Positions 38,186-45,965 of a stretch of 47,757 bases of DNA are shown piece after piece. This DNA comes from Myxococcota bacterium. GTDB taxonomy: Bacteria; Myxococcota; XYA12-FULL-58-9; JALHOP01. The stretch covers positions 1 to 47,757 of the forward strand of contig JBGGMJ010000163.1 of the NCBI GenBank assembly GCA_041288095.1, given 5' to 3'. The notes under the pieces were generated by a model. That model was given only the letters and a program-made list of their open reading frames with translations. It searched no databases and had not been told where the DNA came from. Numbering within the stretch: the first letter of the stretch is position 1; each line of letters starts with the position of its first letter. The translations under genes were made by a program, and so were the position numbers.

Positions 38186-38219
38186 GCAGTTGCCATACCT
38201 TGTACAAACCTTGTACACG
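38186..38219 (+). promoter_or_regulatory. CarH/CarA-type operator overlapping the crt operon promoter
   Basis: 11-bp tandem repeats GCAGTTGCCAT, ACCTTGTACAA, ACCTTGTACAC (nnnnTnnACAn pattern); TTGCCA(38190-95)-N18-TACACG. Confidence 0.8.
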
Positions 38220-38229
38220 GGTATGGGCA

Positions 38230-38847
38230 ATGACCATGGTGTTGGGAACGCTGCTCGTCATCGGCCTCATGGGTGCGACCTCGACCGTGGAAACCGGCGC
38301 CGCGCGCGCCGCCTACTGGGAAGGCAGGGCCGCGAGCGGTAAAGCCCGGCGGGAGCACTTCCAGCGCGGTGTCGACGCCGCCCGTGCCGTCCTCGCGGAG
38401 CATCCCGACGACCCCGAAGGCCTCTTGTGGTTGGCGGCGAACCTCGGCGCCGAGGCCCTCGAACGCGGGAAGCTTCGCGCGCTGCCGGTCATCCCCAAGA
38501 TGGTCGAGCTCCTGAACCGGCTCGACCGCGTCGCGCCGAGCTTCGAAAATGCCGCGGCCGCGCGCACGCTCGGACACCTCTACGCGGTGGCGCCACCGGT
38601 GATCTCGGTCGGCAGCGACACCAAGGCCCGAGACCACTTCGAACGGGCGCTCGCGCTCGCCCCCGACTTTCCTGGCAACTTGGCGCTCGCCGCCGACTTC
38701 TTCGACGACGAAGGCGACGAAGGCGACGAGGAACGAGCGCTCGAGCTGGCGCGGCGTTGTCTCCTCACGTTGCCGCATTTCTTCCGCGATCCCGAAGCCA
38801 AGGAATGGCGCGCCATCGCGGAACGCATCGTCGAGGACAACGGCTGA
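38230..38847 (+). CDS. Exported TPR-like protein (TatT/RMD-like helical repeats), first gene of the crt operon
   Basis: Hydrophobic N-terminus; HPDDPEGLLWLAANLG, RTLGHLY..APP..S.G....A..HFERAL..AP. Confidence 0.7.
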   Translation: MTMVLGTLLVIGLMGATSTVETGAARAAYWEGRAASGKARREHFQRGVDAARAVLAEHPDDPEGLLWLAANLGAEALERGKLRALPVIPKMVELLNRLDRVAPSFENAAAARTLGHLYAVAPPVISVGSDTKARDHFERALALAPDFPGNLALAADFFDDEGDEGDEERALELARRCLLTLPHFFRDPEAKEWRAIAERIVEDNG

Positions 38848-39971
38848 TGACCTACGACGTCGTCCTCGTGGGTGGCGGCCTCTCCAACGGGCTGATCATG
38901 CTCGCCCTCGTCCACGCGAGCCCACGAGGGCGTATCGCCATCGTCGAGCAAGACGAGAAGCTCGGCGGCAACCATCACTGGTCGTTTCACGCCGCCGACG
39001 TGCCGGATGCCGCATGGCCATGGTTCGAGCCGTTGGTCGCTCATCGCTGGCCAAGCTACGACGTACGCTTTCCAACGTTCGAACGACGCGTCGACTCCCC
39101 CTACGCCACCGTCACCAGCGCCACGTTGGACGCGGCGGTCCGGCGCGCCGCGGACCAAGCCGGCGCGACCGTCATCCTCGGCCACCGGGTCACCTCGGTG
39201 CAGGCCGACCATGTAACGCTCGATGACGGCACGCGCCTCGTCGGCAACCTCGTCGTCGATGCGCGCGGCCCAGCGGCGCCTGGCAAGGCTGGCCTCGCCT
39301 ATCAGAAATTCCTCGGGCTCACGCTCCGGGTCGCCGGCGATATCCCAGCGAGGCCCATCGTCATGGACGCCTGCGTCCCGCAAGAACGCGGGCTGCGCTT
39401 CGTCTACGTCTTGCCGTTGGGCGGCGACCGGGTGCTCATCGAGGACACCTATTACGACGAGTCGCCGGTCCTCGATCGCACGCCCTTGCGCGCCAACGTG
39501 CTCGACTACGCGCGGGCGCAGGGCCTTGCGGTCATCGACGTCTTGGGGTCGGAGCACGGCGTGTTGCCGCTTCCGCTAGAGCGGACGATGACACCGCGCA
39601 TGGCGCGCCCGTTGATCGCGGGCTACGCCGGAGGCTGGCTGCAGCCCACCACTGGCTATTCGCTGCCCGTCGCGGTGCGTCTGGCGCTGGCGCTCGCCTC
39701 CGCGGATCCCGATACCGCCGTCGCCGACCTCGCGGCGCGGCATTCCGAGCAGGCGGTCTTCCTGCGGCGCCTGAATCGCTGGCTGTTCCGCGGCATCGCA
39801 CCCGAGCATCGCTGGCGCTTGTTCGCGAAGTTCTATCACCTGCCCAACGACGTCGTGGCGCGCTTCTACGCCATGGAGCTGGGCCCGCTCGAGCGCTGGC
39901 GCGTCGTCGCCGGCGTACCTCCTCGGGGCATGCGCGTACGTGAGCTGCTGCGCGCCGTGGGGGATGCATGA
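38847..39971 (+). CDS. crtY: Lycopene beta-cyclase
   Basis: VGGGLSNG, GGNHHWSF, YQKFLG, P.VMDA.V.Q..G.RFVY.LP, LIEDTYY, PTTGYSLP, FY.L....VARFYA. Confidence 0.92.
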   Translation: MTYDVVLVGGGLSNGLIMLALVHASPRGRIAIVEQDEKLGGNHHWSFHAADVPDAAWPWFEPLVAHRWPSYDVRFPTFERRVDSPYATVTSATLDAAVRRAADQAGATVILGHRVTSVQADHVTLDDGTRLVGNLVVDARGPAAPGKAGLAYQKFLGLTLRVAGDIPARPIVMDACVPQERGLRFVYVLPLGGDRVLIEDTYYDESPVLDRTPLRANVLDYARAQGLAVIDVLGSEHGVLPLPLERTMTPRMARPLIAGYAGGWLQPTTGYSLPVAVRLALALASADPDTAVADLAARHSEQAVFLRRLNRWLFRGIAPEHRWRLFAKFYHLPNDVVARFYAMELGPLERWRVVAGVPPRGMRVRELLRAVGDA

Positions 39972-40942
39972 GCATCGCCGACCTCCTATCGCGCACCATC
40001 GGCTCCGAGAGCGGCGTCCTCCGCCCGTGGCTCGACGCGGCGCTGGTCTCGCCACTCGATGGCTTCGTTCGCCAACCGGGTAAGCGGTTCCGTGGCCGCC
40101 TCGTCCAAATCGCCTGGGACCTGGCAATGCCTCCCGGCTCGAGCAGAGTCTTGCCGCCCGAGCTGCCGCAGGTCCTCGAGCTCGTCCATGCCGGCTCACT
40201 CATCGTCGACGACATCGAGGACGGCTCGAGCTCCCGGCGCGGCGCGCCCACCCTGCACTCGAGCCACGGGGTGCCGCTCGCTCTCAACGCCGGGAACGCG
40301 CTCTACTTCCTGCCCATCGTCGGCCTGCCGGCCATAGGCCTGTCCGCCGACGCGGAGCTCGCGATTCATCGGGAGCTCGCGCGCACCATGTCGCGATGCC
40401 ACGCCGGCCAAGCGCTGGACATCTACGCGACCCTCGACCGCGTACCTGTCGATGAAGTGCCTGAGCTCGTCGAGAGCATCGCGGGTCTCAAGACCGGCAG
40501 CCTCATGAGCGCCGCGGCTCGCCTCGGCGCCATCGCCGCGGGCGCGCCGAGCGCGGTCATCGAGGCGCTAGGCGCCTTCGGCTGCGAGCTCGGCATCTGC
40601 TTGCAGTTGCTCGACGACCTCGCGAATCTCTCGAGCCAGAGCGATCCGCAAAAGCGGCTCGAAGACTTGCGGGCACGCCGAATCACCTGGGTCTGGTCGT
40701 GGCTCGCTCGCCACCGGCCACGTGAACAGGTGCTCGACCTGCGCCGGCGCATCCTCGAGGGCAACGGCACCGTCGAGCCCACGGCGGCGGAGATCGTCGC
40801 GATGCTCGGCGACGGTCCGCGCCTGGAGGTACGCGATCGCCTGCACACCGCATCCCTGAAGCTCGCCACCCTGCTTGGCGAGCATCCAACCTTCGAAGTC
40901 CTCTTCGCCGAGGTCCGACGCCTGGAGGCAAGTTATGGGTGA
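39968..40942 (+). CDS. crtE: Polyprenyl (GGPP) synthase
   Basis: GKRFR, ELVHAGSLIVDDIED..RRG, GQALD, KTG, QLLDDLAN. Confidence 0.85.
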   Translation: MSIADLLSRTIGSESGVLRPWLDAALVSPLDGFVRQPGKRFRGRLVQIAWDLAMPPGSSRVLPPELPQVLELVHAGSLIVDDIEDGSSSRRGAPTLHSSHGVPLALNAGNALYFLPIVGLPAIGLSADAELAIHRELARTMSRCHAGQALDIYATLDRVPVDEVPELVESIAGLKTGSLMSAAARLGAIAAGAPSAVIEALGAFGCELGICLQLLDDLANLSSQSDPQKRLEDLRARRITWVWSWLARHRPREQVLDLRRRILEGNGTVEPTAAEIVAMLGDGPRLEVRDRLHTASLKLATLLGEHPTFEVLFAEVRRLEASYG

Positions 40943-42404
40943 GTCCCGCCGCGTCGCGGTGATCGGCAGCGGCTTCGGTGGGCTCGCCGCCGCCATTCGC
41001 TTGCAGACCGCCGGCATGCAGGTCACCGTCTTCGAAGCGCGCGACAAGCCCGGTGGCCGCGCCTACGTCTACGAAGATCAGGGTTTCACCTTCGACGCGG
41101 GGCCCACGGTCATCACCGCGCCCGATTGCATCGAGGAGCTCTTCCGCTTGAGCGGACGCAAGATGCGCGACTACGTCGAGCTCCTACCCGTCAGCCCCTT
41201 CTACCGCCTCCGTTGGGAGGATGGCGACAGCCTCGACTACGACCAGGACTTCGGCGAACGCATCGGGGCCAAGTGGCCGACCGAACGAGCAGGCTACGAG
41301 CGGTTCCTCGGCTACAGCCGCGACGTGTTCGCCAAAGGCTACACCGAGCTCGCCGCCACGCCGTTCCTGCGTTTCTGGGACATGGTGCGTGTCGCGCCCG
41401 AGCTGGCCCGCTTGCGCGCCGACCGCTCGGTGTATGACACGGTCGCGCGGTTCATCGGTAACGAGAAGCTACGCCAGGCGTTGTCGTTCCACGCGCTGCT
41501 GGTTGGCGGCAATCCGTTCGAGACCAGCGCCATCTACACCCTCATTCACTACCTCGAGCGTCAGTGGGGGGTGCATTTCCCACGCGGCGGCACCGGAGCG
41601 TTGGTGCAAGCGCTCGTGCGACTCCTGCGCGAGCTAGGCGGCGAGCTGCATCTGGGGCTTGCGGTCCGCCGTGTCCGCTTGAGCGGTGGAAAGCATTTTG
41701 TCACGACCGATACGGGCGAGACGGCCTTCGACGCCGTGGTTTCGAACGCCGACCTGGCGCACACCTACGCCGACCTCCTACGCGGCGAAGGGCGGGCCGA
41801 GCCCATGCGCAAGCGGCTCACCGGCATGGAATGGTCGATGTCGCTCTTCGTCATCTACTTCGGCACCAACCGCCGCTGGCCTGACCTCGCGCACCACACC
41901 GTGCTCTTCGGGCCGCGCTACCAAGAGCTCCTGCGCGATATCTTCCGCGGCAGCATCCTTCCCGACGACTTCTCGCTGTACCTACACGCGCCAACGGTGA
42001 CCGATCCATCGCTCGCGCCCGTCGGCTGCGAAGCATTCTACGTTTTGAGTCCCGTGCCGCATCTCGGGAACGCCGACCTCGATTGGGAGGCCATCGCGCC
42101 CGCATACGCGGACCGCATCCTCGCGTATCTCGAGCGTGACCTGCCTGGGCTCACTTCGAGCATCGTCACCAAGCGCTGGTTCACGCCGCGCGACTTCGCA
42201 TCGGAGCTGTCGGCGCACCACGGCTCGGCGTTTTCGGTCGCGCCGCGCCTGACGCAGAGCGCTTGGTTCCGGCCGCACAACCGCGACCCCAACATTCCCG
42301 GCCTCTATCTGGTCGGAGCCGGAACCCACCCCGGCGCCGGCGTGCCCGGAGTCATCAACTCGGCGAAGGCGACGGCACAGCTCATGGTTCGTGATTTCGC
42401 ATGA
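40935..42404 (+). CDS. crtI: Phytoene desaturase
   Basis: IGSGFGGL, FDAGPTVIT, LLVGGNP, SLYLHAP, WFRPHNRD, GAGTHPGAGVPG. Confidence 0.95.
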   Translation: MGESRRVAVIGSGFGGLAAAIRLQTAGMQVTVFEARDKPGGRAYVYEDQGFTFDAGPTVITAPDCIEELFRLSGRKMRDYVELLPVSPFYRLRWEDGDSLDYDQDFGERIGAKWPTERAGYERFLGYSRDVFAKGYTELAATPFLRFWDMVRVAPELARLRADRSVYDTVARFIGNEKLRQALSFHALLVGGNPFETSAIYTLIHYLERQWGVHFPRGGTGALVQALVRLLRELGGELHLGLAVRRVRLSGGKHFVTTDTGETAFDAVVSNADLAHTYADLLRGEGRAEPMRKRLTGMEWSMSLFVIYFGTNRRWPDLAHHTVLFGPRYQELLRDIFRGSILPDDFSLYLHAPTVTDPSLAPVGCEAFYVLSPVPHLGNADLDWEAIAPAYADRILAYLERDLPGLTSSIVTKRWFTPRDFASELSAHHGSAFSVAPRLTQSAWFRPHNRDPNIPGLYLVGAGTHPGAGVPGVINSAKATAQLMVRDFA

Positions 42405-43348
42405 ACCGCCCGTTCGACGATGAGGCGCTGCGCCTGTGCCGCGAGTCGCTGCGGCGCAACTCGCGCAGCTTCAGCTGGGCGTCGCTCCTATTGCCGGCCG
42501 CGGCGCGCGATCCGGTCGCCGTGATCTATGCCTGGTGCCGGCGCTGCGACGACGCTATCGACGACGTCCACGCAGGCGAGCAAGCCGAGGCCCTCGAGCG
42601 CCTGGCCGCCGAGGTCGATGCCATCTACGCCGGGGAGCCGATGCGTGACGTCGTGCTCACCGCCTTCCAGGTCGTCGTGCGGCGCCACCGCATCCCGCGC
42701 GTCTACGTCGACGAGCTACTCCTGGGCTTCTCCATGGACCTCGGCGTCGTCCGCTATGCCACGCGCGAGGAGCTCTTGCTCTATTGCTACCGTGTAGCCG
42801 GCGTCGTCGGACTGATGCTCTGTCACGTCATCGGCCTCGGGGATCAGACCCTTCTCGGGCGCGCCGCTCATCTCGGGATGGCGATGCAGCTCACGAACAT
42901 CTGCCGCGACGTCGCGGAGGATTGGGGACGGGGCCGCCGCTATGTTCCGAGCGAGCTGTTGCCCGCCGGGTCGCCCGAACCAGGTGGACCCGAGCCCTTT
43001 CCGCCTGGGCTCGCGCCGGCGTATGTCGAGCCGCTGCGGCATCTGCTCGCGATAGCGGATCGATACTACACTTCAGCCGACGCGGGCATCGTGGCGCTCG
43101 GCTTCCGCTCGGCGCTCGCGGTTCGCATGGCTCGTCGCGTTTACGCCGCCATCGGTTCGGTGATCGGCAAGCGCAACCACGACGTCGCGAGCGGGCGCGC
43201 CGTCGTCAGCGGCGCCGCCAAGCTCGGCATCATGTTGCGCGCCATCGCCGCCACTATCGCCGAGCTGCCTCGACGGTTGGCGACCAGGAGTCGACTCGCG
43301 CCGCCGCGGAAGATCGTGAGGTTCGAAGATGCAACTCTTGCCGCGTGA
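42401..43348 (+). CDS. crtB: Phytoene synthase
   Basis: SRSF, YAWCRRCDDAID, YCYRVAGVVG, LGMAMQLTNICRDVAED..GRRYVP. Confidence 0.95.
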   Translation: MNRPFDDEALRLCRESLRRNSRSFSWASLLLPAAARDPVAVIYAWCRRCDDAIDDVHAGEQAEALERLAAEVDAIYAGEPMRDVVLTAFQVVVRRHRIPRVYVDELLLGFSMDLGVVRYATREELLLYCYRVAGVVGLMLCHVIGLGDQTLLGRAAHLGMAMQLTNICRDVAEDWGRGRRYVPSELLPAGSPEPGGPEPFPPGLAPAYVEPLRHLLAIADRYYTSADAGIVALGFRSALAVRMARRVYAAIGSVIGKRNHDVASGRAVVSGAAKLGIMLRAIAATIAELPRRLATRSRLAPPRKIVRFEDATLAA

Positions 43349-43907
43349 GCTCGTGGTCTACGTCGGCCGCATCCGCGAGTTCGATCGCGCCGACTGGGCG
43401 GTCTACTTGTTTTGGGTCGTGGGCATGGTCGGGCTTGGGGTCGTCATCGCCGCGTTCCAACTGTTCGGGCGCGCTCACGGCGCCGTCTTTCCCGCCGAGG
43501 CATATCTCGTCCCCATCGGGGTGGCGATCTTCGCGGCCGCTATCGCGGTCGACACCATCGGTCACCGCACCATCTACAAGGAAGCGCTGCGGGGCGGCGA
43601 GCAGCTCGTGCATCACGTCATCATCGCGCTCGGCATCGCCAGCTGTGTCTTGCTGTGCCTCGCCTACGAGCATCCGCGCACCTACGCCATCCCGGCGGCG
43701 GTAGTTACTTCTCTCAGCTTCGTCTATTCGCTGGTCGACGAGGCCATGCACTGGCGCCGTTACATCAAGGCGAAATCGGACAGGGTCGAGATGTGGAGCC
43801 ACGTCTTCATTCTCACCGGCCACAGCATCATGATGCTCGGCTGGTGGCGGTGGTTCATGCTCGGCTACCCGGGAGTGGCCGAAACCTTGCGAGCCATCTC
43901 CGCGTGA
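43329..43907 (+). CDS. Uncharacterised 5-TM membrane protein with four [D/E]xxxH motifs; candidate carotenoid-modifying metalloenzyme
   Basis: DTIGH, EQLVHH, DEAMH, EMWSH; overlaps crtB and is coupled to the GT. Confidence 0.7.
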   Translation: MQLLPRELVVYVGRIREFDRADWAVYLFWVVGMVGLGVVIAAFQLFGRAHGAVFPAEAYLVPIGVAIFAAAIAVDTIGHRTIYKEALRGGEQLVHHVIIALGIASCVLLCLAYEHPRTYAIPAAVVTSLSFVYSLVDEAMHWRRYIKAKSDRVEMWSHVFILTGHSIMMLGWWRWFMLGYPGVAETLRAISA

Positions 43908-45100
43908 CGCGAAAGCGGATTCTCTTCGTCGCCGAGGCCGTGACGTTGGCTCAAGTCGTGCGGCTTCGCGTCCTGGCGGCTTCCCTCGACCCCGCGCGCT
44001 ACGACGTGCACTTCGCCAGCAGCACCTTCGATCCGCTCGTCTTCGCCGGCACGCATTTCACCCGCTGGCATATCGCGTCGCTTACGCCGCATCAGGTCGA
44101 GCGCGCCGTGGCACGAGGGTCACGCATCTATTCCGCCGCGACGCTGTCCAGCTACGTCGACGCGGAGCTGGGATTGTTCGACCGCGTGCGGCCGGATCTG
44201 GTGGTGGGAGATCTTCGCTGGTCGCTCGCGGTCTCCGCTCCCCATGCCGGCGTTCCACTCGCGTCGCTCATCAACGCGTACTGGAGCCCCTTCGCCCAGC
44301 GCGACGGTTTCCCGATGCCCGACCATCCGGTGCTACGCCTCCTCGCCGAGGCCACCGCTGAGCGCTACTTCCCGCGGGCGCTGCCGTGGGTCTTCCAGCT
44401 CTTCGCTCGCCCGCTGAACGTCGTGCGCCGGCGCTACGGCTTGCCGCCACTCGGCGACCTGCTCGAGCTGCTCACCTATGGTGACTACACCGTCCATCCG
44501 GATGTCTCCGAGCTCACGCCCCTTCGTGGCGCGCCCCATTCACACGTCTTCTTGGGGCCGGTGTTGTGGTCGGCGGCCGTCGCGTGTCCGGCGCTGGCCC
44601 AGCTCGGCGGCAAGCGCCCGCTGGTCTACGTGACGCTGGGCTCGTCGGGTCACTTGGCGGCGTTGAACGCGGTCCTCGATGGCCTGGGGGCGCTCGACGT
44701 CGACGTGCTCCTCGCGACCGCGGGGCGGGTGCGCCCGATGAACCTGCCCGCCAACGTGCACGTCGCGGATTTCGTACCCGGCGATGAAGCAGCCCGGCGT
44801 GCGTCCCTCGTCGTCTGCAATGGAGGAAGCACGACGGCCTACCAAGCCCTCGCCGCGGGCACACCCGTGCTCGGCGTTGCTTTCAACTTCGATCAACACC
44901 TGGCGATGCAAGCCATCGACCGCTACGGCGCCGGCGTGCGACTGCGCGCCACGACGCTCGAGCCCGCGCAGGTTCGCAACGCGGCGACCCACATGCTGGC
45001 GAGCACGAGCTTCAGGGCGCGGGCGGCGAGCTTGCGCGATTGCTTCGCGACTTACGACTACCGGAAGACTTTCGCGAGCCTCGTGTCCGCGGCGACCTGA
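43904..45100 (+). CDS. GT1 family glycosyltransferase (resembles mycobacterial PGL/p-HBAD rhamnosyltransferase type)
   Basis: RILFVAEAVTLAQVVR, PDLVVGD.R, YVTLGSSG, VCNGGS, DQ motif. Confidence 0.85.
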   Translation: MTRKRILFVAEAVTLAQVVRLRVLAASLDPARYDVHFASSTFDPLVFAGTHFTRWHIASLTPHQVERAVARGSRIYSAATLSSYVDAELGLFDRVRPDLVVGDLRWSLAVSAPHAGVPLASLINAYWSPFAQRDGFPMPDHPVLRLLAEATAERYFPRALPWVFQLFARPLNVVRRRYGLPPLGDLLELLTYGDYTVHPDVSELTPLRGAPHSHVFLGPVLWSAAVACPALAQLGGKRPLVYVTLGSSGHLAALNAVLDGLGALDVDVLLATAGRVRPMNLPANVHVADFVPGDEAARRASLVVCNGGSTTAYQALAAGTPVLGVAFNFDQHLAMQAIDRYGAGVRLRATTLEPAQVRNAATHMLASTSFRARAASLRDCFATYDYRKTFASLVSAAT

Positions 45101-45965
45101 GCGTCGCGAGCAGGTCTTGCGCGCCGATACCGGCGGATCGGACTCCGCGTGGCAACGCACCGAGGCTCGCGACACCCTGCCCGCCCACCCAGAGTGGTCG
45201 ACCAGCGCAGGCGGTCTTGTATGCGGCGACTGCTCGGCGGTCGGCCGCGGTCGCCGGGTTCGTGAGCGACAAGCAGACCATCGCCGGGGATAGGTCGCGC
45301 ACCGCCACGGCGAGCGCCTCGGGGGGCGTTCTCGCACCGAGCACCACTGGGCGCAGCCCCCTTGCCGCGAGATGCACCGCGACGACGTAGCAAGCGACGT
45401 CGTGCTCCTCGTCAGGGAAACACGCGACCACCGCGACGCCCCGTAGGGGACGCGCACGCATGCCCGCGACGAGCGATGCGAGATGCGCACGCAGCCGTTG
45501 CACCAGCCAATGCTCGTGCGCGACACCGATGCGGCCGTCTGCCCAACGGTCGCCGAGCTCGACCAGCGCCGGCGCGAGCACATGGAGCACGGCTTCTTCG
45601 GCCGCGTAAGCGTGCGTCACCTCGGTGAGCACTCTCTCCAAGGTGGCGCCATCGAAGACGCATGCCGCGTCGAGCAGGCGGTCACGCAGCGTGTCCGCGT
45701 TAGCGAACGGCAGCGCCTTGGCGCCACGCTGCTCGCGAAGCACCTGCTCGGCGGCCTCGTGGGCCGCCATGCCGGAGCTGACTAGATCCTTCATGCGCGA
45801 TAGGGAGCGCAGATCGATCTCGCTATAGAGCCGGTAGCCGCTGTCGGTGCGCGCCGGCCGAGGAATGCCATATCGGCGCTCCCAGGCACGCAGTGTCGAC
45901 GCGCCGATGCCCGCGCGTTCGGCGGCTTCCACGATGCGGTATTTCGGCCGGAGCTCGCGCGCCAT
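45012..45965 (-). CDS. carH: B12-dependent MerR-family photoreceptor/repressor (CarH/LitR type)
   Basis: LRAWERRYG..P.RT..GYRLY; W-x9-EH (WADGRIGVAHEH); EEHDVA cobalamin motif; LG..TP, VGGQG. Confidence 0.82.
   Translation of the reverse strand: MARELRPKYRIVEAAERAGIGASTLRAWERRYGIPRPARTDSGYRLYSEIDLRSLSRMKDLVSSGMAAHEAAEQVLREQRGAKALPFANADTLRDRLLDAACVFDGATLERVLTEVTHAYAAEEAVLHVLAPALVELGDRWADGRIGVAHEHWLVQRLRAHLASLVAGMRARPLRGVAVVACFPDEEHDVACYVVAVHLAARGLRPVVLGARTPPEALAVAVRDLSPAMVCLSLTNPATAADRRAVAAYKTACAGRPLWVGGQGVASLGALPRGVRSAGIGAQDLLATLRSPRTRGSRKSSGSRKSRSNRASSPPAP

Follow-up and report, generated by a model that had tools for sequence, protein, structure and literature searches.

A membrane protein family of beta-carotene operons that is mutually exclusive with CrtZ: a candidate new class of beta-carotene hydroxylase

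Hydroxylation of C–H bonds of the beta-ring is attributed to three enzyme families (PMC3111180). The known 3-hydroxylases are CrtZ, CrtR and CYP175A1, and CrtG acts at C2 (PMC3111180, PMC3324416). CrtR illustrates that the 3-hydroxylase job is filled by more than one family, and the Thermus P450 CYP175A1 shows that a non-homologous enzyme can take the place of CrtZ (PMC3111180). In the bicyclic-xanthophyll clusters of Proteobacteria, zeaxanthin is formed via CrtZ (PMC2889829).

The window, by which we mean the whole stretch of 47,757 nucleotides of Myxococcota DNA analysed here, carries a carotenoid operon with the gene order TPR/TAtT-like gene, crtY, crtE, crtI, crtB, a gene here called X, and a GT1-family glycosyltransferase gene, with a CarH-like repressor gene convergent to it. 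Its CrtI is 60% identical to the type found in proteobacterial bicyclic-xanthophyll clusters. The features are listed below.

38201..38217, plus strand: two TGTACA motifs 11 bp apart, just 5′ of the operon, fitting the CarH repeat nnnnTnnACAn
38224..38847, plus strand: TPR protein (TAtT/BstC-like); PF16811 E 8e-8, BstC E 4e-7 (below cut-off)
38847..39971, plus strand: crtY, lycopene beta-cyclase; TIGR01789 315 bits, cut-off 215
39968..40942, plus strand: crtE-type polyprenyl (GGPP) synthase; PF00348 E 3e-38
40935..42404, plus strand: crtI, phytoene desaturase; TIGR02734 653 bits, 60% identity to Pantoea CrtI
42401..43348, plus strand: crtB, phytoene synthase; PF00494 E 2e-66
43329..43907, plus strand: X, candidate CrtZ-replacing di-metal beta-carotene hydroxylase; 192 aa, five-helix membrane protein of an unnamed family; putative ligands D75, H79, E91, H95, D137, E138, H141, E154 and H158
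43904..45100, plus strand: GT1-family glycosyltransferase, candidate xanthophyll glycosyltransferase; PF06722 E 1e-16
45012..45965, minus strand: CarH-like B12-dependent MerR repressor, convergent to the operon; PF13411, PF02607 and PF02310, CarH model E 9e-37 (below cut-off)

The TPR gene is the probable first gene of the operon, and its product is possibly a lipid or carotenoid carrier. The TGTACA pair is the only such match in the window, was found in none of 100 shuffles, and is conserved in loci of the same genus. Its fit to the CarH operator repeat consensus (PMC9304148) suggests that the operon is likely to be light-regulated. The carH gene lies at the far end of the operon, and its tandem 11-bp repeats at the upstream end. 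A search for a sigma-70 promoter consensus gave none.

The genome containing the window (90% complete) carries single copies of X, of crtY and of a CrtI-family gene (CrtI cut-off E <= 1e-40). A Pantoea CrtZ query found no CrtZ in it, and the best match to a profile of eight CrtZ sequences (E 0.008) was an unlinked fatty acid hydroxylase. CruF was not found, the CrtR model gave only weak matches to unlinked desaturases, and a PF07143 lipocalin gene follows a membrane transporter-like gene, in surroundings free of crt genes. Three P450 genes and four PF04116 genes are present, all unlinked to the operon; they are possible hydroxylases and, like the incompleteness of the genome, count against the reading of X that we prefer below.

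The X gene starts at an ATG that overlaps the 3′ end of crtB by 20 nt, and its TGA stop overlaps the GTG start of the glycosyltransferase gene, exactly in the slot between these genes where a preliminary description of this DNA had placed it. That description had read the product as a 192-residue protein with five hydrophobic helices. The reading frame was confirmed, the hydropathy profile has five peaks, of which the fifth is weak (~1.0), and an AlphaFold2 model (pLDDT 93.7, pTM 0.87, 40-row alignment) has five long helices, at residues 20-49, 56-81, 84-111, 116-146 and 152-177. The four [D/E]xxxH motifs described earlier are present with the spacings given, as D75TIGH79-x11-E91QLVH95H96 and D137EAMH141-x12-E154MWSH158; of 20,000 shuffled versions of X, 17 contained at least four motifs of this kind. 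The patterns HxxxxH, HxxHH and HxxxHH do not occur in X, in agreement with the claim that it lacks the boxes of CrtZ and of fatty-acid hydroxylases. The motifs flank two loops that are rich in K and R (family means 2.9 and 3.1 residues, versus 0.7 and 0.6 in the other two loops), which suggests that all of them lie on one face of the membrane, as had been proposed, and that this face is probably cytoplasmic. An internal two-fold repeat had also been claimed. It holds at the level of the motifs. Pairwise comparison of the halves gave p = 0.018 (2000 shuffles), and profile-profile comparison of the halves was not significant (probability 0.4%, E 0.16); judged by these comparisons, the repeat is weak outside the motifs. 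A predicted complex of X, CrtB and two Fe scored 0.00, which tells neither for nor against.

X represents a real, widespread and unannotated family. It is matched by 1,996 clusters at 90% identity, and among the 120 matches listed the named clusters are called only "hypothetical". Clustering at 50% identity gave 87 representatives, many of them fragmentary and three of them full-length at 26-29% identity to X. By name, the loci come from metagenome-assembled genomes (MAGs) of Myxococcota and Bdellovibrionota, some being labelled just "proteobacterium"; the plasmids and viral contigs searched contain no X. Among 260 distinct full-length homologs (23-100% identity), the columns kept in at least 259 sequences are D22, F68, D75, H79, E91, H95, S134, D137, E138, H141, R144, E154, H158, W172 and Y180. 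Nine of these 15 are His, Asp or Glu residues of the motifs, so that the motifs of the preliminary description are conserved apart from H96, kept in only 218 of 260. On helical wheels of helices 2-5, eight of the motif residues lie within 50 degrees of the conserved face, and E138 lies at 88 degrees.

Searches for relatives of X were negative. Pfam gave no match above cut-off, the sole row being a sub-cut-off 7TMR-DISM, and NCBIfam gave none; a profile search of the PDB found no solved relative (best E 1.1), and no curated family (Pfam and others) was found among those listed for 40 members. Foldseek, run with the model, returned nothing at E <= 0.001. The best structural rows from VIA were PhoU and McpS (Z 9.0), then TSPO (Z 8.7), in a range (Z below about 13) that is unspecific for helical bundles. 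The family was not found described in a full-text literature search whose coverage leaves out most subscription journals and bioRxiv supplements, so that an earlier description is possible; the accessible portions of PMC10576062, of PMC3539863, where the pigment of a yellow Bdellovibrio is described, and of PMC9304148 name no X-like gene.

An Atlas feature search found, besides the unnamed cluster to which the family itself belongs, two further unnamed clusters scoring < 0.9, one of 155 aa from Bacteroidota and one of 129 aa from Acidobacteriota. The 155-aa cluster (333 members) scored 0.87-0.89 against both near and distant members of the family, and may be a remote relative. For the distant clade (P0171, P0176 and P0195; 23-29% identity) the searches gave only the query and a main-clade locus, and its gene context was not recovered. 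A single contig carries an in-frame CrtB-X fusion of 480 aa (P0227), and the X of one Bdellovibrionota genome (G686:C232:2512-3079) is split by a frameshift, which is either a real break or an assembly error.

Of 105 loci with X, 80 were retained. The gene immediately 5′ of X is crtB in 73 of the 74 loci with at least 400 bp of upstream flank. With at least 5.2 kb upstream, crtY, crtE, crtI and crtB are all found near X (59/59 loci), and the order is Y-E-I-B-X in 58 of 59 loci with enough flank. Homologs of X are thus almost restricted to crt operons. The only X unlinked to crtB or other crt genes (L078:2108-2698) follows a peptidase M23 gene in a Polyangiales MAG, and counts against our preferred reading. 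Glycosyltransferase genes are less regular companions: among 48 well-flanked loci, 18 have a GT1 gene, 11 a GT2 gene, 19 neither and none both, and in Bdellovibrionota 34 of 38 X stretches have no glycosyltransferase gene. These loci also weigh against the preferred reading. The preliminary description had proposed that X, lying between crtB and the glycosyltransferase gene, supplies the missing hydroxyl; a hydroxylase is supported by the exclusion of crtZ described below, but the argument from the glycosyltransferase does not hold generally.

In a sample of 301 genomes of the window's own phylum, X was found in 7, and relatives of the window's GT1 with at least 49% identity in six of these seven; four of the 294 non-X genomes have GT1 relatives, at only 27-42% identity, and the short stretches inspected around these contained no crt genes. 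A match to crtY above cut-off was present in 34 genomes of the sample, a tally that includes one genome (G180) excluded from the crtZ search. That search found crtZ in none of 37 genomes, neither in the seven with X nor in the 30 without. Since crtZ is equally absent from crtY genomes that have no X (0/30; 0/10), exclusivity within Myxococcota says little. The genomes of the 80-locus set also gave no crtZ (0/49, G346 included), and the positive control was found.

Genomes were further sampled by crtY alone around one Kofleriaceae and one Bdellovibrio genome (50 of 251 each), and 80 new handles were searched for X and crtZ after exclusion of the centre genome, 18 known X genomes and G756. In the Polyangia-type class X was present in 22 of 32 and crtZ in none of 32. 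Nine of the ten non-X genomes of this class were inspected: three have a CrtU-like gene in its place, two have an empty slot, and in the other four the stretch is truncated or has another architecture. Of 48 Bdellovibrionota genomes with a crtY match, 39 have X only (counting the frameshifted G686), seven have crtZ only, none has both and two have neither; the last two contain a crtY-like gene (28%) whose neighbourhood lacks crtI and crtB. Fisher's test gives p = 4.9e-7 for the exclusion, a value overstated by kinship. On a tree of CrtI plus CrtB (46 rows, G802 and G598 excluded) the X and crtZ labels change five times on the best tree (four to six times in bootstrap replicates, never just one time); well-supported branches force two changes, and only two firm independent pairs could be drawn, not enough for a sign test to reach significance. 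Over all X handles crtZ was found in none of 7, 49 and 61, or about 116 distinct genomes, and a CrtZ profile found none in nine X genomes while detecting the control G692. The mutually exclusive profile that the preliminary description had put forward as support is thus what was observed.

All seven Bdellovibrionota CrtZ proteins carry the full set of His boxes. One of these genomes, G692, provides an exact exchange: its order carH, TPR, Y, E, (E), I, B, crtZ, GT1 is the gene set of the window with crtZ occupying the slot of X, and its GT1 nests within the X-linked GT1 clade (SH-aLRT 91/94 in a quick tree). G802 has the order Y, I, B, crtW, crtZ, GT1, TPR, and its GT1 is a long branch outside that clade. 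In G754 the order is Y, I, B, crtZ with crtZ on the opposite strand; crtZ lies five genes after crtB in G687, adjoins crtY in G662, and lies elsewhere, adjoining crtW, in G716 and G768. The swap follows crtZ and not crtW, because four crtZ-only genomes (G692, G687, G754 and G662) have no crtW; crtW adjoins crtZ in three of the seven. No crtW was found beside X in the inspected X loci, or in any of five single-contig X genomes. As crtZ tends to appear where X is missing, X is probably an unrelated enzyme doing the same job.

X is thus a core gene of a beta-carotene operon, its product carries invariant His and carboxylate residues on one face of the membrane, and crtZ displaces it. On this genomic evidence it is a strong candidate for a new class of beta-carotene hydroxylase. 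We consider it likely that X is a non-homologous replacement for CrtZ, a candidate membrane di-metal (probably di-iron) beta-ring hydroxylase that would most likely convert beta-carotene to zeaxanthin. We incline, with less assurance, to the broader view that it would constitute a fourth class of beta-carotene 3-hydroxylase and the first of a group of undescribed integral-membrane oxygenases, with a di-iron site formed by four [D/E]xxxH helix ends and unrelated to any entry of Pfam, NCBIfam or the PDB. The scarcity of other sources of hydroxyl groups supports a hydroxylase: among 56 X handles (55 genomes, G164 and G344 being the same place) the CruF family is present in four, one of them below cut-off, and a second CrtI/CrtD-type gene in two.

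The proposed enzyme would be an integral membrane, O2-dependent beta-ring hydroxylase acting on beta-carotene made by CrtE, CrtB, CrtI and CrtY, with C3/C3′ the most likely positions, giving beta-cryptoxanthin and then zeaxanthin. Helices 2-5 would pack as an antiparallel bundle, and at its cytoplasmic ends two His and two carboxylates would make up each of two layers, a deeper one of D75, H95, D137 and H158 and an outer one of H79, E91, H141 and E154, with E138 bridging or shifting. Such a site may bind a pair of metal ions, probably Fe. Once reduced, this centre would activate O2 and remove a hydrogen from the ring of a carotenoid in the bilayer. The electron donor of CrtZ is ferredoxin-type; that of X could be ferredoxin-type or a quinol, and no electron-donor gene is consistently encoded near X. 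In clusters with a GT1 or GT2 gene, the hydroxylated product would then be glycosylated.

Like X, CrtZ is a small integral membrane protein that occupies the same slot in Y-E-I-B clusters and is followed by the same GT1 clade; the two are mutually exclusive and probably catalyse the same reaction. They differ in sequence and in their sites. Eight aligned CrtZ (PF04116) proteins have His boxes and X has none; the putative ligands of X are four His and five carboxylates on helix ends, whereas the site of CrtZ is His-only. No homology between them was detectable (hhalign probability 0.2-0.5%, E 0.11), and PF04116 matched neither X nor any of 40 members in the families listed for them. CrtR and CrtW (PF00487) are also membrane beta-ring oxygenases, with three His boxes that X lacks, and their profile comparison with X was not significant (hhalign probability 0.9%, E 0.063); one of 40 members (P0132) had a sub-cut-off PF00487 match (E 1e-5). 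By these comparisons X is outside the CrtZ family, though CrtZ-like in its inferred role, and outside CrtR and CrtW too. CYP175A1 has the heme-thiolate P450 fold, unlike the five-helix X, which has no P450 match. The ferritin-like di-iron carboxylate oxidases and hydroxylases (AOX/PTOX, Coq7) are four-helix bundles with paired acid and His ligands and a rough two-fold symmetry, features that the proposed site of X would share. Their ligands come as E...ExxH pairs, and the helices bearing them are not transmembrane. In X, by contrast, the [D/E]xxxH motifs (i, i+4) are single, one to a helix on four membrane helices, and only E138xxH141 fits the ferritin-like ExxH; among Foldseek and VIA rows for the model, ferritin-like proteins were not significant (best E 1.8).

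An oxygenase of similar chemistry acting elsewhere on the ring, a C4 hydroxylase or ketolase or a C2 enzyme whose xanthophyll fills the niche of zeaxanthin, is unlikely, although it is the foremost of the alternatives. C4 is allylic and chemically easy, X has no homology to CrtZ, and the finding of crtW with crtZ and never with X, which counts against our preferred reading, is compatible with C4 activity. A ketolase would be expected alongside CrtZ, as CrtW is, but all seven crtZ genomes lack X and four of these lack crtW as well; the same GT1 clade follows either gene, and a CrtG-like gene already accompanies X in four clusters. Scarcely behind it in probability is the view that X is an accessory membrane protein, whether a metal or carotenoid binder, a TspO-like ligand binder, or a protein that anchors CrtB in the membrane or accepts electrons from CrtI. 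TspO/CrtK is a five-helix membrane bundle, as X is predicted to be, and occurs in some crt clusters. TSPO ranks near the top in the structural comparison (Z 8.7, rmsd 3.9, 145 residues aligned, 10% identity; Foldseek E 0.39), which also weighs against our preferred reading, and the CrtB-X fusion and the scarcity of glycosyltransferases in Bdellovibrionota clusters would suit such a role. The Z score is unspecific, however, with PhoU and a chemoreceptor domain scoring as high, and the Pfam families listed for 40 members do not include TspO; the invariant His/acid set distinguishes X from TspO/CrtK, and an accessory role leaves unexplained both the nine invariant His and acidic residues and the loss of X exactly where crtZ appears.

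The two alternatives named in the preliminary description, a hydratase and a cleavage oxygenase, fared worse. It is very improbable that X is a CruF/CrtC-like 1′,2′-hydratase that places a tertiary hydroxyl on a psi end, to be used by the glycosyltransferase: the rarity of CruF in X genomes and the CruG/HpnB-like GT2 and methyltransferase genes of some clusters would fit, but CrtY, which normally cyclises both ends, is always present, 54 of 56 X handles have no CrtD partner, a swap with crtZ would not be expected, and neither PF04240 nor PF07143 matched X as query or is among the families listed for 40 members. Least probable of all is a Blh-like cleavage oxygenase making retinal or other apocarotenoids. 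Blh, too, is encoded last in crt operons and works with iron bound by His, yet rhodopsin occurs in only three of 56 X handles, two of these three have a true Blh (PF15461) adjoining the rhodopsin gene, and X has no BCD match, as query or in the families listed for 40 members.

If X is the hydroxylase that we propose, xanthophyll formation by the CrtY-type clusters of Bdellovibrionota and uncultured Myxococcota would depend mainly on it, and pigment predictions for these two predatory lineages, whose CrtY clusters now seem to end at beta-carotene, would be revised. A name would be gained for a family that comprises about 2,000 protein clusters, all so far without annotation. A fourth scaffold, of 192 aa and with a new His/carboxylate di-metal arrangement, would be added to the classes of membrane metalloenzymes, and X could serve as an alternative part for zeaxanthin engineering.

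Several other genes recur around these operons. A TAtT/BstC-related TPR protein is encoded in 19 of 80 X loci (for example L037:2953-3831), often beside GT1, and a second TAtT type in 12 of 80; a TAtT/BstC-like TPR gene is also present in the crtZ clusters of G692 and G802. Proteins of this kind may carry xanthophylls across the periplasm. GT2 (CruG/HpnB-like) and SAM methyltransferase genes occur together in 13 of 80 loci (L016, L017, L029, L045 and others; L005:12513-13607), a pairing that suggests methylated carotenoid glycosides. The CrtG-like candidate is a 260-aa sterol desaturase, found once with crtZ (G687) and four times with X (G691, G699, G753 and L080); this shared companion speaks for our preferred reading. 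Its best plasmid match lies outside any crt cluster. Relatives of the window's GT1 at 38-42% identity with no crt gene nearby were seen at L180, L181, L184 and L185, four copies in G093; one follows a gene that we take to resemble an N-acyl amino acid synthase.

The crtY genes of own-phylum genomes without X are mostly orphans or lie beside an FAD protein, which we take to be CrtU-like and whose only Pfam match is PF01593. In many own-phylum genomes (family f16, L123-L132) an orphan crtY adjoins aspartokinase, protease and ABC genes and is separate from crtI and crtB. Two other non-X crtY clusters (L235:3525-6498 and L237) combine DUF2141 with a CrtU-like FAD protein and with a Rieske-DUF5914 gene. 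Some of the X clusters with GT2 are likewise followed by DUF2141, as is a sterol desaturase gene on a Sphingomonas plasmid (L284).
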